The notes: generated by a model not told the origin, from the letters alone. Shown: positions 4,609 to 17,633, numbered from the stretch's first letter. The stretch is 64,000 bases of DNA from Octopus sinensis (GCF_006345805.1 NC_043012.1:20150001-20214000); one strand, 5' to 3'. Numbers and translations are program-made.

Positions 4609-4750
4609 TCAAAATTCATTCCCACTACATTGTGGGAAAGTACATTGATATGCGTGTAGGCATCTTGAGAGTCTTTCAGAAATTCTATTCATGATGTCCT
4701 CATTGTTCCACAACATAGACAGGGATTCCTTGGAAAAGTGTCGGCATCTC
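4609..4750 (-). CDS. Candidate host gene, last coding exon (RCRHFSKESLSMLWNNEDIMNRISERLSRCLHAYQCTFPQCSGNEF*)
   Basis: Acceptor tatcgtttacAG; only one frame open across 142 nt, ending TGA followed by GTAAGT; a diverged paralogue at 27777-27897 keeps the frame. Confidence 0.7.
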
Positions 4751-5221
4751 CTGTAAACGATATTGTATGGTTTTGCGTGCCTTACTTTGAACCATTTTAT
4801 GCTGTACTTAATTTTATCTTACTTCAGTCGGCACTCATAAACGGACAAACATGTTGCATGTCTCTAATTGATTCTTTTGAAGCTGGTGACATGGCTGGAT
4901 AACGTTTCTTAAATATATGTATAGCCTATATACTCATAAGAACACATGTATATACATATGTATGCATGTGTATATATATGTGTGTGTGTATATATATACA
5001 TATATATGTGTGTGCGTGTGTGTATATATACATATATACATGCGTATATTATGTATATGTATGCATAAATGTGGGGATGTTTAGGAAATGTAATTCTTTA
5101 TAGTTTTATCTACTTCCAGTCCAAACGTTTAAAGAATACGTATTTTGTGTATACACCTGTAAATGATATTGTTATAGGGAACAACGCATGCATTATTGTA
5201 AGCTTAAATTCAATAACTTAC

Positions 5222-5251
5222 CCCTTTATTGCCAATGTTCCAAGAGCAGGT
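5222..5251 (-). CDS. Candidate host gene, 30-nt microexon (PALGTLAIK)
   Basis: Strong acceptor ttatttttcccttgcAG and donor GG|GTAAGT; phase 2-2 open. Confidence 0.6.
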
Positions 5252-7444
5252 CTGCAAGGGAAAAATAAATTAAAATCTTTAATAAATGAAATATTGAAGA
5301 ATTCATGTATAGGCACACACACAAACATATATATATATATATTATATATATATAATATATATATATATATATATATATATATATATGTATATGTATATAT
5401 ATACATATAAATATATATACATATACATACACACACACACGGATATATATATATATATATATATATACACACATGTATATGTATATACATATACACACAC
5501 ATACACACACACATATATATATATATACAACGTTCTTATATTCATTGAACCTTCGTCAAGTGCACTATTTAGACTCTTTCATCTTCTCTCCTTAAATATT
5601 ATTAAATATTTTGATTTCTTTATTTACATCATTTCTCTCCTCTCTCTTTCGGCTCTCCCTCCTCTCACTTCCCCTCTCTCTCCCCGCTCTCTCTCTCTCT
5701 GTTTCTGTCTATCTTCCTCTCTCACTATCTCTGAACGTTCCTAATGATGTATATTCCGAGCCATTCTTAGATACTTCGATTCATTACATTAAATTGAAAC
5801 TATGGAACATGTGATGTCTGCTTGATATGAGCATCCCTAATACTCATGCCACAACCGGACACATCTTATGATCAGCCTATTCACTATACTGACTATACTG
5901 ACGCTTCGCTGCGCGCAGTGAGACGGCGCTAATTCAGTTCTACCTTGAAATACTTAATGATTTTTAAAATGCCAGCAGCTATTGTGTCCCTGATGTTATA
6001 CACTTTGAAGAGTAATATCTTGATGTTGTGAATTTAATATATTCGTCTTTCATCTAAAACAGGATTGGCTTGGTGAATATGGTACTGAATTTGCGGCAGA
6101 TGACATAGGTTCCGCTACTATCTCTAACTCCCATTGTCGTTTGTAATTAAATAATTGCATTTCCAATCAGATATCTTTCTCTCTTTCCCATACGTATTGT
6201 TACACAAGGCAAATAACTAATTATGATCAAGGCAATGAATAATGACTTGGGGAAAATTTGAACCCTTAGCAACATACTAATTCCTTAAGTTGTTGCTACC
6301 ATGTCAATCCTCCAGCGGCATTACATACGCATAGACTTATCAATCAAACCCTATTACCCTACTGAAGATATCGTGTTCAGGCGAACAGTTCTGAAAGATA
6401 TACTTTTACCCTCAAAAGAGAGCTCGTTCTAAGGCATGCGCTCTCACCATATAGATATCTTGCTATTCTTTTATGGGTTTTATATTAGGTTTTATATGGG
6501 TTTTATATTAGGTTTTATATTAGGCTGGAAAGAAAACCTCGTATTTCTCACAATAAATCTGAGACAAACAATTTGAAATTAATTATTATTCATTTACGTT
6601 TTACATCCTAAAGCGTTTTAAACTTCTTAACAGATTACTAATTAGCATTGTATTTTTAATATTCATAAAGATTTTATTCCTTCAGAATTTAACACGTGTG
6701 TGCGCGTGTGCGAGGCTATGTGCGTATGAGAGTATGTGTTTCTGTAATTGTGAAGCTAGACAGAGCACGCATTACATTAATATTACATAAGAAAATATAA
6801 CTCACATGGCGCGTTTGCTCCTGCTAGATAGTTCTGTGCTGTAATGAAAGAAAAAAAACATTCATTAATGAATGAAATATAGCGGATGCCAAGTATATAT
6901 ATATATATTATATATATATATATATGTGTATATATATATATATATATATATATATATATATATATATATATATATATATATATATATATATATATATATA
7001 TATATATATATATATATATATATGTATATATGTATACGAAGAAGACAAAATAGAGTGGAAAACCTACCGAAGGCTTGTGTTATATGATTGAAAAATATAT
7101 CTAATTCGTTATGCTAGAAAAATTTTATAAAATTATGTGTATAGTAAAATTGTTTTCGGAGAAATAACCGATTTCGTATTTTCTTTCCAAATTTCTCAAA
7201 TTTCTTTACCTATATTGTGTCATATCTTCACTATGCTGTGAAAATGTGACGTAATCAGGGATTTTTTCGGTATAAGGGTATAATAAAAAATGTTGTGAAT
7301 GACTAGGTTTTATTAATTTAACATGGTTTGGTTTAGAAGGAACAGAATGCTGCAAGTGGTTAGGTTTTACTTTATATTTTTTTCAATGGGGTGAGTTTCC
7401 TTATTTAAAGATGATTGAAATGGTTCAAATTTGGCGTATATTTT

Positions 7445-7575
7445 TCAATCTCGAGTGTAACCAGCCGAAATTGCAAAGACAATCCGGAACTTGACTGAGG
7501 AAAGAAATCTCTAAATTACCCGTCCTTGTTTTTTTGTATCGTTTGTCTGGATGTTTTGTTGTCCCTTTTTTCTAT
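7445..7575 (+). repeat. Fragment of the repeat family also at 16185-16448
   Basis: Shares caatctc..taaccagccgaaattgc..tccgg..cttgactga..cccgtcc..tttttgtatcgt. Confidence 0.75.
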
Positions 7576-7636
7576 ATGTATATATATATATATAATATAT
7601 ATATATATATATATATATATATATATATATATATAT

Positions 7637-8100
7637 GTATTAGAATATAATGTATAGAAGAGGTCAACCGAGAAGTGCTCAATCTCACGTGAGCCTTTTA
7701 GTAATAAAATTCAGATTTTCGTAACGTATCTGCCACTATAGGTTTCACGCGCACATGCGCGTTAAAAGATCTTGTAGAAAATCAAACACTAAGATATATA
7801 ACGTGGTTAAGTCGTTACAGATAGAGAACGTTAGGAAGGTGCCGATAGGATGAAAATATTTTCGAATTGAGACATCTGACACCGATTTGAACAAAGATTT
7901 TTGGAATGGTGTTATGCCTATGTCCAGCAGTATTTGCATAGTACATTTGCTGTTGCCCTTTATGTAGAAATTCAAACATGGTTGAAAAATGGCATCTTAT
8001 TAACAGTATAATAGTCAAGTAGGTAAATCTCAAAGATATCCTTCTCACCGGTTAATATATTTGTATTGGACACACAATCGCTCACACAATGAAGGTAGCT
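7637..8100 (-). mobile_element. Probable PLE 3' end with decayed hammerhead
   Basis: Minus strand stem II acgcgcatgtgcgcgt followed by GAAAC ctatag (~7725-7765); CTGANGA decayed; abuts (TA)n; shares the GTRCTCAA tail motif. Confidence 0.4.
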
Positions 8101-8386
8101 TCAAATTCCTTCTCAAATTTCTCATTTCAGAAGTGGAATTCATGTAGACCAACCAAATTTAAACGTGTACATGCAACATTTTGCATAAGTATCACTTGAA
8201 TAAAGACAAAATATCACTAGGCATATGGTCTTTACGTTTTACAACAAAAATACAAGGTCTTCTTTAAAAAATAATTGCATCATTCACTAAAAGATACTCG
8301 TGTAATGGAGAGCATGTGTATGTTTGTATGTATGTGTGCATGTGTGTGTTTATATGTAACGGTCGATTGATATATTCATATTTTAC

Positions 8387-16184: not shown

Positions 16185-16448
16185 TTTGTATTCATATTCG
16201 TGTAACATCGTCCGTTTTTCTGTCCTTGTTTCGTATACATTCGAAGCTTTCTTCCAAGGAATCTAATGCGCTTAGCTTAGTTTTTTTCCTTGGGGCTGGC
16301 CAGATTGGCGCAATCTCAAGATTAACCAGCCGAAATTGCGAGGATGCTCCGGTTCTTGACTGAAGATTGAAGGCTTCGAATGTCCCGTCCGTGTTTTTTG
16401 TATCGTATTCTAGATGTTTTGCGTTCTTGTTCCAGTTTGTATTTTTTA
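16185..16448 (+). repeat. Dispersed pLTR-like repeat with hammerhead-shaped remnants
   Basis: Stem ggctgg/ccagcc followed by GAAA; later CTGAAGA..ttcGAA; partial copy at 7445-7575; lies between microsatellites. Confidence 0.55.
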
Positions 16449-16698
16449 TACACACACACACACACATATATATATATATATATATATATATAGAGAGAGA
16501 GAGAGAGAGAGAGAGAGAGACAGAGAGAGACAGACAAACAGAGACACGGAGAGAGAGACACGCACACATCTACATACTACATCTACATACTTCAGCGTAT
16601 ATGCATTTCTTTTTTTTACTTGTTTAGAGAAAGACAAGCAATAAAAATAAATTATGATATATAAAATATATCAACATCAACAAATATTGATTGCTTAC

Positions 16699-16827
16699 GT
16701 GTAAGGAACGCAGTGGATAATCAGGCCAAATATTATGTATATAATTGGCATTTTCTTCTGTATAAACTGGAACTTTACAATTGCATAAAACGATTTTATG
16801 AAATTGCAATATCACTGTGAATATGAT
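16699..16827 (-). CDS. Candidate host gene exon 2 (IIFTVILQFHKIVLCNCKVPVYTEENANYIHNIWPDYPLRSLH)
   Basis: Acceptor cattattttgcAG, donor GTAAGC; 129 nt; only phase 0-0 is open. Confidence 0.65.
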
Positions 16828-16906
16828 CTGCAAAATAATGTATAAATATGTACATGTAGATTTCAGCATGAGTAAATTTTGTTAAAAATAATCTTTACAA
16901 TTGGTA

Positions 16907-17062
16907 TAGGCGTGGCTGTCTGGTAAGAAATACCTCCCCAAACAAATGGTTCTGGGTTCAGTCCTACTGCTTAAGTGTTTTTTCTACTCTAGTTCTACCC
17001 ACCCAACCGACCAAAGAGTTGTGAGTGGATTTGGTAGAGGAAAGCTGAGAGAAAAACCGCCA
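16907..17062 (+). mobile_element. SINE A 5' portion, decayed
   Basis: ggcgtggctgtctggtaag..gggttcagtcc..gtgagtggatttggtaga. Confidence 0.75.
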
Positions 17063-17606
17063 TATATATATATATATATATATGTGTGTGTGTGTGTGTG
17101 TGTGTGTGTGTGTATGTGTGTGTGTGTGTGTGTGTGGTTGTGCTTGTGTACGTATCTGTTCATGCATTTTTCGAAGAAACATTTTCTCTATTGTAAATTG
17201 TTTATTTACAAACCAGTTCCTAGAAATTTTATTGTAAATAATAAATATAAGTATATACCCAGAATTACGCCAAATAGCAGTTTTCTGTGAATCAATTTTG
17301 GTAAAAAAAAAATTTCGAAGGTGACTTGCACATTACAGCAATTAAATTGCCGTGTATTCATTATTCTGTTTAACCCACTTTCCTTTTTTTTTTTTTCCAT
17401 ATTTTTCATATTTTGCGTGACAAACGCTGTAATTAAAATTTGAATAAAAATAATTCTTCTAGACATTTTTTTCTTTCAGGAAATTAAGGGAAATGATACA
17501 CATTAAGCATACATTGAATATATATTTAACAAAAAAAAACATAATAATGTAACATTTATTGACATAATGAATTATTTAGTCACATGAGCACCATTTCAAC
17601 AGATAC

Positions 17607-17633
17607 CTTCAAGAACCCTGGGCAAGTTGTCAT
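17607..17633 (-). CDS. Candidate host gene first coding exon (MTTCPGFLK)
   Basis: ATG at 17633, donor AG|GTATCT in phase 0; joined to exon 2 it gives a signal-peptide-like N-terminus. Confidence 0.5.

Follow-up and report, generated by a model that had tools for sequence, protein, structure and literature searches.

The locus considered here raises the question of whether a stretch of Octopus sinensis DNA hides a gene for a secreted protein of no recognised kind. The window, i.e. the whole stretch analysed, comprises 64,000 nucleotides (NC_043012.1:20150001-20214000, hereafter part of C16), and positions are counted from its first letter. The initial annotation proposed a hidden minus-strand gene of ten exons encoding 269 aa. 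The ten segments do exist, each with AG before and GT after it, and together they form 810 nt that read without a stop through 269 aa to a TGA, a translation that agrees by eye with the one first given. A multi-exon gene is indeed located on this strand, but it is not hidden and has another structure: the 150-nt exon 9758-9609 matches, at 100% identity, a section of a known NCBI entry, "uncharacterized protein LOC115220626 [Octopus sinensis]" (P0001), with 14 coding exons and 284 aa. We consider, with a probability of about 0.85, that the window carries the first seven coding exons of this annotated gene and half of the eighth, and that the predicted product is a signal-peptide-bearing, membrane-anchored surface protein, likely with one furin-type convertase cut at a conserved R-x-K-R. 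The outcome stays within an uncharacterised gene that was already catalogued.

Threading of P0001 on the genome gave one unique GT-AG solution with 14 coding exons on the minus strand, a CDS of 855 nt and 100% identity. All 11 genome matches of P0001 fall inside C16:20.055-20.165 Mb and point to the same exon places independently of threading. Coding exon 1 (16699-16751, 53 nt) starts with the ATG at 16751 and encodes signal-like residues 1-18, within a hydrophobic stretch at residues 1-20. It is followed on the same strand by exon 2 (14365-14448, 84 nt), exon 3 (13078-13173, 96 nt), exon 4 (9609-9758), exon 5 (6806-6838, 33 nt), which carries the conserved R-S-K-R site, exon 6 (5222-5251, 30 nt) and exon 7 (1684-1722, 39 nt), which encodes part of a Gly-rich hydrophobic segment. 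Exon 8 (36 nt) has its first 17 nt at positions 1-17 and the rest at C16:20149982-20150000. Exons 9 to 14 are placed by the GT-AG threading outside the window, also on the minus strand, at C16:20148897-926, 20143580-606, 20138422-475, 20137709-801, 20134824-870 and 20133750-832, the last with the TAA. The coding span begins at position 16751 and ends 16.25 kb ahead of the window's first letter, beyond the end of the earlier model.

Comparison of the two models showed that four of the ten proposed exons are exact (14448-14365, 13173-13078, 9758-9609 and 5251-5222, the fourth, fifth, sixth and ninth, corresponding to coding exons 2, 3, 4 and 6; 360 of 810 nt), while six are wrong. Segments 17633-17607, 15707-15685, 9146-9083, 8451-8387 and 4750-4609 (the first, third, seventh, eighth and tenth) are not part of the annotated model, and coding exons 5 and 7 are absent from the proposed one. 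The second exon, 16827-16699, has the true donor but is read in the wrong frame, the true start codon at 16751 lying inside it in another frame; the 23-nt exon 15707-15685 was needed because this frame error had to be repaired. The seventh and eighth exons (64 + 65 = 129 nt) occupy the place of the true 33-nt exon 6838-6806. Only residues 19-128 and 139-149 are common to the earlier model and P0001. The proposed N-terminus, residues 171-213 and the entire C-terminus are artefacts. A single open frame, claimed for several larger exons, holds over the full length in 4 of the 10 segments (16827-16699, 14448-14365, 13173-13078 and 9758-9609) and not in the other six.

Transcript evidence was sought by comparing contigs of runs X1, X2, X9 and X6, whose labelling as RNA is a guess, over positions 7660-9959. 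Contigs of X1 and X2 cover 9609-9755 and 9609-9697, respectively; both depart from the genome exactly at 9609 and then continue. In the X2 contig, the 30 loose letters past 9609 correspond to positions 6809-6838, adjoining a ...cattacag acceptor. This spliced contig thus joins donor 9609 to 6838, which is the annotated junction, and not to 9146 as initially predicted. It is 530 letters long, with 441 past 9609, and 472 nt of the model CDS remain beyond this point. On the guessed RNA label, the contigs over 7660-9959 show 1 of the 13 annotated junctions. Coding exon 4 has only two matches in the genome at the DNA level; since each lies in a locus with flanking introns, the contigs are unlikely to stem from a processed DNA copy. 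A low-depth piece of X2 (0.66-0.82) at about 9038-9122 crosses the proposed donor 9083 unspliced. Positions 8387-8451 have no contig cover from X1, X2, X9 or X6, which was not counted as evidence.

Repeats occupy part of the introns. A dispersed repeat at 4315-4908, outside the coding sequence, holds the whole tenth exon of the earlier chain (4750-4609) and supplied its stop codon. It gave 1141 first-look candidates, of which 40 were scored (the query and 39 copies on many contigs, with 79-83% identity). Within the window, a copy of this proposed exon at 27798-27897 has an in-frame stop. An IQCH-like ATP-grasp domain (PF24923) was set aside for the same segment: its 17.8 bits fell short of the cut-off of 27, the IQCH-like loci of the genome are only on C12 and C8697, and neither blastn nor tblastx revealed similarity to these loci (best E values 0.19-0.2). 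A second, short interspersed repeat lies in intron 4 at 9200-9320 and is not an exon (2991 first-look candidates; 39 scored copies with 80-94% identity). This repeat explains why contigs of all four runs pile up so deeply around 9232-9289 (depth up to 5097). A joint from 9272 to 9802, seen in one X6 contig with GG..CA ends, was discarded since it sits in repeats. An Rfam search over positions 1-18500 found no family, including for the repeat at 9200-9320.

The proposed chain could still be read as a genuine alternative transcript with its first, third, seventh, eighth and tenth exons as given, a reading that we find scarcely credible. The AG/GT flanks and the open frame hold for all ten segments, most of the splice sites seem good, with gtaagt at donors and pyrimidine-rich tracts at acceptors, and alternative isoforms occur in the family (P0002, P0003), but chains of this kind form freely by chance. 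When the criteria of the initial annotation were applied (any AG/GT, exons of at least 23 nt), the real minus strand yielded an ATG-to-stop chain of up to 7212 nt and the antisense strand one of up to 7050 nt, while in each of ten shuffles of this 13-kb sequence the longest chain measured between 5577 and 6333 nt. With stricter site rules, 810 nt was still surpassed in three of the ten shuffles and, at 999 nt, on the antisense strand. A stop-free GT-AG chain of 810 nt is not above chance, and in this AT-rich, intron-rich genome it carries no evidential weight. Further evidence against a second transcript comes from the origin of its stop codon in the dispersed repeat and from copy C of the gene, in which the frame of the proposed second exon is disrupted by a 10-nt gap and a stop. 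The first, third, seventh and eighth exons have no paralog alignment with at least 60% cover at E<=0.01, and none of the 13 database family members contains these segments or the tenth. The sole junction seen, 9609 to 6838, omits the seventh and eighth exons in that molecule. The lesson is that the exons chosen for phase fit, the two small ones at 15.7 and 8.4 kb, both missing from the annotated model, were exactly the wrong ones.

LOC115220626 (gene A) is one of three tandem paralogs with a common exon plan, of which copy B was mapped in part only. Gene A and copy C (LOC115220522) both follow a plan of 14 exons with phase-2 introns; lengths are equal for 11 of the 14 exons, and the other three differ by multiples of 3. 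Annotated exons 2-4 are open in copies B and C, with a single gap of 3 nt in exon 2. Threading of P0005 with canonical splice sites gave no fit at the last intron. Conservation among paralogs was rejected as proof of coding because the introns of the three copies align too, at 70-85% identity. Between A and C, dN/dS is 0.60 overall, which suggests weak constraint, with 0.43 in the N domain and at least 0.9 in the linker and tail segments, where sites are few.

We defined the family of LOC115220626-like orphan proteins from 13 database proteins. Profile searches retrieved seven proteins each, significantly similar along their full length (E from 2.5e-175 to 3e-09), P0001 itself being a member. 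The relatives comprise LOC115220522 and LOC115220523 (O. sinensis, same cluster), LOC106881475, LOC106876345 and LOC106881480 (O. bimaculoides) and the distant LOC115222984 and LOC115223027, with 26-77% identity, all uncharacterised. O. bimaculoides has counterparts, 283-284 aa long, that are collinear with P0001, collinear proteins also occur in O. vulgaris, and diverged members on other contigs (26-39% identity) keep the motifs and Cys. In our database searches, the family was found in three Octopus species only and every relative bears an Octopus name, in agreement with the lineage restriction initially suggested. The gene thus belongs to a small family that has multiplied in tandem, evolves fast and has so far been found in Octopus alone.

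A further possibility is that this copy is a lineage-specific duplicate that is decaying or has lost its function, its frame still open through recency and its database model merely a gene-finder prediction. The intron identity among the three copies and the dN/dS of 0.60 would fit this explanation, as would the lack of a domain or fold match. The main texts searched also do not mention LOC115220626, LOC106881475, LOC106876345, LOC115220522, LOC115220523, LOC106881480 or XP_014787356; expression tables may list these loci. Nevertheless, all 14 exons are open and their lengths differ between A and C only by multiples of 3; collinear proteins exist in O. bimaculoides and O. vulgaris, members at 26-39% identity elsewhere retain the same motifs and Cys, and a spliced contig was found. 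We therefore regard decay as very improbable.

Signal peptide, GPI or transmembrane anchor and convertase cut were called with a hydropathy script, motif matching and general rules rather than with a dedicated predictor. P0001 has hydrophobic stretches at residues 1-20 and 260-284, R-S-K-R at 134 and Cys at 50, 105, 229 and 244. The Octopus relatives share with it a signal-like start, a helical N domain with two Cys containing HAWENFF, R-x-K-R between the N and C domains, a C domain with an invariant D-x-R-F-L motif and two Cys, and a hydrophobic tail. The pattern W...L..D.RFL...F...C...C of the C domain is present in P0001, and W191, L205, D208, R210, F211, L212, F222, C229 and C244 are invariant in eight family sequences. 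R-x-K-R is present in 9 of the 9 sequences covering the site, and the C-terminal hydrophobic tail in 6 of 8, while the models of the remaining two stop earlier. In the four C16-type members scored, the segment after R-x-K-R is hydrophobic and rich in Gly/Ala/Ser (39-56%). The Gly-rich hydrophobic stretch occurs in the C16 cluster alone, where its mean hydrophobicity is 0.37-0.56, and is missing from the distant members P0016 and P0014 (0.15 and 0.01); the furin-type site directly precedes a hydrophobic Gly/Ala-rich segment in 4 of 4 C16-type members and 0 of 2 distant ones.

These features suggest the following processing. Exon 1 would encode a cleavable signal peptide and the precursor would enter the secretory pathway. 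A cut after R-S-K-R (residues 134-137) would yield two parts: a helical two-Cys domain of about 115 residues from the N-terminal side, and a C-terminal fragment beginning with the Gly/Ala-rich hydrophobic stretch and continuing into the conserved two-Cys domain. The hydrophobic tail, as a GPI signal or a transmembrane tail, would keep this fragment in the membrane. In P0001, the small residues S-G-A lie about 8-9 residues upstream of the tail (hydropathy and inspection), while the distant member P0013 looks transmembrane, its tail being followed by basic residues in the classical pattern. The protein was initially expected to be secreted; the signal-like N-terminus agrees with this, but the hydrophobic C-terminal anchor of the real protein makes a membrane-tethered product more likely than a freely secreted one. 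The idea of disulfides is consistent with the four conserved Cys.

Domain searches agreed with the initial remark that no domain could be recognised. Pfam gave no family for 7 of 7 single exons of the earlier chain and only a sub-threshold MbeD_MobD match for whole proteins (12.7 bits against a cut-off of 21.6); NCBIfam gave none for 3 of 3, a PDB profile search one chain at E = 1, and the ESM Atlas no usable match, with a pLDDT of 0.37 for its own model. AlphaFold2 models built with 3 and 6 sequences had mean pLDDT of 34.6 and 40.0, and because both are poor, domain statements are kept at the level of secondary structure. The structure comparison that had been proposed as a check returned no fold: with the second model, none of the 94 Foldseek rows against the PDB reached E<=0.001, the best E being 1.3.

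Glypicans and RGM/hemojuvelin are convertase-processed, GPI-anchored surface proteins. LOC115220626 resembles them by its predicted signal peptide, internal basic convertase-type site and GPI-signal-like hydrophobic tail, but has no sequence relation to them, is much smaller and has an anchor that may be GPI or transmembrane. Two other roles were weighed against that of a tethered surface protein. In one, R-x-K-R cleavage would free a soluble bioactive fragment (the helical N domain, or else the amphipathic Gly-rich stretch), as in prohormone or antimicrobial-peptide precursors, the anchor serving just for sorting. Fast evolution and tandem duplication are common among secreted effector and peptide families, and the dN/dS and tandem arrangement seen here would suit one, as would the signal-like N-terminus, the strictly conserved site and the Gly/Ala/Ser-rich segment after it. 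Yet neuropeptide precursors typically show several dibasic sites around short conserved peptides and no anchor; here there is one conserved basic site and a hydrophobic tail. The Gly-rich stretch lacks a second site for its release and is absent from distant members, the next dibasic pair, at 209, falls within the invariant D-x-R-F-L motif, and conservation peaks in the 50-residue C-terminal two-Cys domain rather than in a short peptide. A membrane anchor is also atypical of peptide precursors. We consider a peptide precursor unlikely.

The other role is that of a membrane-fusing or membrane-active surface family that would have arisen within octopuses and lack relatives in other genera. In class I viral fusion glycoproteins and syncytins, a signal peptide is followed by a furin-type site, and cleavage there leaves the membrane-anchored part starting directly with a Gly/Ala-rich hydrophobic segment. 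The C16-cluster layout would be this in miniature: after a cut at R-x-K-R, the anchored fragment would begin with a hydrophobic stretch, rich in Gly/Ala and about 36 residues long. The likeness is one of working only: LOC115220626 has no sequence or profile similarity to these proteins (Pfam, PDB) and is not a member. Only about 85 residues separate the hydrophobic stretch from the anchor, where one long helix (~206-230) is predicted from the poor models and no heptad-repeat pair is shown, and the stretch is not family-wide. We consider a fusogen improbable. For the surface protein, we favour a role in recognition or signalling that is particular to octopus tissues, and such lineage-restricted members of this Octopus family are candidates for cephalopod-specific cell recognition. 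Of two O. bimaculoides isoforms, P0003 has a non-hydrophobic first exon, a point against the predicted surface protein, and P0002 lacks exactly the residues of coding exon 3, with the junction residue expected if this exon is skipped.

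Translation of the 150-nt minus-strand exon at window positions 9758-9609 alone gave 100% identity to the 284-aa "uncharacterized protein LOC115220626 [Octopus sinensis]" of NCBI (hereafter P0001). What the initial annotation had described as a hidden gene is the RefSeq locus LOC115220626 itself, already annotated and not mentioned by name in the literature searched. There is a single way to thread P0001 onto the genome, as 14 GT-AG coding exons on the minus strand with a CDS of 855 nt. Exons 1 to 7 lie at 16751-16699 (53 nt), 14448-14365 (84 nt), 13173-13078 (96 nt), 9758-9609 (150 nt), 6838-6806 (33 nt), 5251-5222 (30 nt) and 1722-1684 (39 nt). 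Exon 8 (36 nt) straddles the window start (17-1, continued at 20149982-20150000 of contig NC_043012.1, hereafter C16), and exons 9 to 14 (30, 27, 54, 93, 47 and 83 nt) lie beyond the window start, the last ending at C16:20133750. From first to last codon the CDS occupies about 33 kb, half of it beyond the window. Phase 2 is common to introns 1-12, and the lengths of a run of 11 exons are multiples of 3, so that any of those exons could be skipped in frame. The O. bimaculoides counterparts of P0001 have 283 and 284 aa. An isoform of that species (X3, P0002) is missing precisely what exon 3 encodes, carries at the junction the residue expected from skipping it, and appears to represent an in-frame skip of this exon. 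Orthologous and paralogous proteins are collinear with LOC115220626. This collinearity and the P0002 isoform lend indirect support to the junctions 14365 to 13173 to 9758, which the initial annotation had named as decisive. We consider the 14-exon model correct with a probability of about 0.9.

The chain of ten exons proposed from the sequence was verified as a description of the DNA. The ten segments, all on the minus strand, have AG directly before them and GT directly after, sum to 810 nt, remain stop-free until the final TGA and, when joined, translate into the proposed 269-aa string (compared by eye). Four of the ten (16827-16699, 14448-14365, 13173-13078 and 9758-9609) have a single fully open frame. 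The TGA taken as terminal is directly adjoined by gtaagt. We evaluated how much such a chain is worth by dynamic programming, computing the longest run from ATG to stop that can be assembled from AG|exon|GT segments with exons of at least 23 nt and introns of at least 60 nt. With any AG/GT, the longest chain reached 7212 nt on the real minus strand, 7050 nt on the antisense strand and 5577-6333 nt in 10 shuffles. With stricter site rules, the values were 1617 nt, 999 nt and 543-1368 nt, three of the 10 shuffles reaching at least 810 nt. Since shuffled and antisense sequences also yield chains that reach 810 nt, the argument that the exons read without stops and agree in phase carries no weight here. 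The sequence of the window is rich in AT (24-39% GC in each 4 kb), microsatellites are frequent (41 TRF rows in its first 24 kb), and there are no long ORFs apart from translations of simple repeats; the genome is that of an animal with many introns.

Compared with the annotated model, four of the proposed exons (14448-14365, 13173-13078, 9758-9609 and 5251-5222) are exact, accounting for 360 of the 810 nt. The second proposed exon, 16827-16699, has the true donor and the wrong frame: it corresponds to the first coding exon, whose ATG at 16751 is in a frame other than the one open across the full AG-GT segment. The 23-nt exon at 15707-15685 was required solely to mend this frame error. The pair at 9146-9083 and 8451-8387 (129 nt) stood in for the true 33-nt exon 6838-6806, and 4750-4609 replaced annotated exons 7-14, most of which lay out of sight of the initial annotation. 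The proposed first exon, 17633-17607, is absent from the annotated model.

Could the proposed chain nevertheless be a genuine isoform of this locus? It shares four exact exons with the gene, and its remaining parts were compared with assembled contigs, repeats and paralogs. Contigs from two sequencing runs (X1 and X2) extend to donor 9609 and continue past it. The 30 letters of X2 beyond the donor are identical to 6809-6838, abutting the ...cattacag acceptor, and those of X1 differ from this segment by one letter. The loose contig letters do not match the start of the exon proposed at 9146. The X2 contig runs for 441 letters past 9609, against 472 nt of remaining annotated CDS. A processed DNA copy is an unlikely source of these spliced contigs (from runs tentatively labelled RNA), because the exon-4 DNA occurs at just two genomic places, both with introns. 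Contig depths reaching about 5100 in each of the four runs compared are due to a short interspersed repeat at 9200-9320, which has 2991 first-look candidates and for which no Rfam family was found. A dispersed repeat also surrounds the proposed terminal exon (594 bp, 4315-4908; at least 1141 first-look candidates genome-wide); of the 40 candidates scored, one is the query and the other 39 are copies spread over many contigs, with 79-83% identity. A second copy in the window (27483-28059) is 74% identical to it over about 600 bp and has an in-frame stop in the counterpart of the exon (27798-27897). On the minus strand at 4612-4818, a weak, sub-threshold Pfam match of the open frame to the IQCH-like ATP-grasp family (E 0.0022; 17.8 bits, cut-off 27) was judged to be due to chance because the region has no similarity to the real IQCH-like loci of the genome (C12 and C8697). 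In the paralog LOC115220522 (copy C), the frame proposed for 16827-16699 is broken by a 10-nt gap and a stop, and the proposed exons 17633-17607, 15707-15685, 9146-9083 and 8451-8387 gave no paralog alignment with at least 60% cover at E<=0.01. Annotated exons 2-4 are open in both copy C and copy B (LOC115220523), with a single 3-nt gap. We therefore regard the proposed chain as a genuine isoform with next to no likelihood. The annotated gene is spliced at one junction at least, its architecture is conserved, and so far its distribution is limited to one genus.

This gene (copy A) is one of three tandem paralogs on C16. Copy C lies on the plus strand 71.1 to 35.3 kb before the window, tail-to-tail with copy A, and the start of copy B, on the minus strand, is 84 kb before the window. 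Intronic sequence can still be aligned between the copies, at 70-85% identity, so paralog conservation alone is no proof of coding. Exon lengths are nevertheless equal between A and C in 11 of 14 cases, with differences in multiples of 3 for the remaining three. For this pair we estimated a dN/dS of 0.60 over the whole sequence and of 0.43 for the N domain, which indicates weak purifying selection; that the locus is a decaying duplicate is very improbable. Synonymous divergence between A and C drops from 0.40 overall to 0.10 in the last 36 codons, within the last exons of A (C16:20133750-20134870), which suggests gene conversion between their tail-to-tail 3' ends. The last acceptor of copy C (C16 about 20114589) reads ...caag in place of ...cag, so its database C-terminus cannot be reached by a canonical GT-AG join, and canonical joins frameshift; the candidate explanations are a non-canonical splice, correction of the gene model and an indel in the assembly. 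Intron 12 of copy A contains a diverged second copy of exon 12 (C16:20135080-20135173, minus strand; protein identity of 76% in one frame and 53% in another), probably a defunct internal duplicate.

The protein had been proposed to be lineage-restricted and without a recognisable domain, and both points held. Word-seeded searches of 5.8 billion proteins returned 6 and 7 proteins, a profile search run exhaustively over 1.84 billion representatives found 7 at E<=0.001, and every named member came from O. sinensis, O. vulgaris or O. bimaculoides. Diverged members (26-39% identity) lie on other contigs. Pfam and NCBIfam searches gave no match, nor did a PDB profile search or the ESM Atlas, two AlphaFold2 models were poor (pLDDT 34.6 and 40.0), and Foldseek, run with the second, gave no match at E<=0.001.

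P0001 comprises a hydrophobic N-terminus (residues 1-20), a helical N domain (about 21-128; HAWENFF motif, Cys50, Cys105), R-S-K-R (134-137), a hydrophobic stretch rich in Gly and Ala (138-173), a C domain (about 185-250) with invariant W191, L205, D208, R210, F211, L212, F222, C229 and C244, and a hydrophobic tail (260-284) that terminates the protein. R-x-K-R is present in all nine family sequences covering the site, and the tail in six of eight, the remaining two models ending sooner. The Gly-rich stretch is hydrophobic in the four C16-type members scored and in neither of two distant ones. Judging from these features and general rules of the secretory pathway, the precursor would enter the ER by way of a signal peptide and be cleaved behind R-S-K-R by a convertase of the furin type. 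A GPI anchor or a transmembrane tail would hold the C-terminal fragment on the membrane, and the helical N domain would either leave or stay bound. Small residues S-G-A sit 8-9 positions ahead of the terminal hydrophobic stretch in P0001, as would suit a GPI anchor, and the distant member P0013 has basic residues after its tail. A secretory, membrane-anchored product is probable as a predicted topology, and cleavage at the predicted R-S-K-R site is an evenly balanced proposition. The layout resembles that of convertase-processed anchored surface proteins, but sequence and profile tests did not place the protein among them. In the C16 cluster the order of predicted site, hydrophobic stretch and anchor also resembles that of class I fusogens, for which these tests were negative too. 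The same predicted cleavage site and N-terminus would fit a peptide or effector precursor, a reading we consider unlikely beside the anchored protein. The modest remaining interest lies in an octopus-only family with an invariant predicted processing site.

Elsewhere in the window, an open frame at 38461-38763 (minus strand) encodes a clear DDE fragment of a mariner-type transposase (Pfam PF01359; E 7e-15; 55 bits, cut-off 24) and is a transposon remnant.
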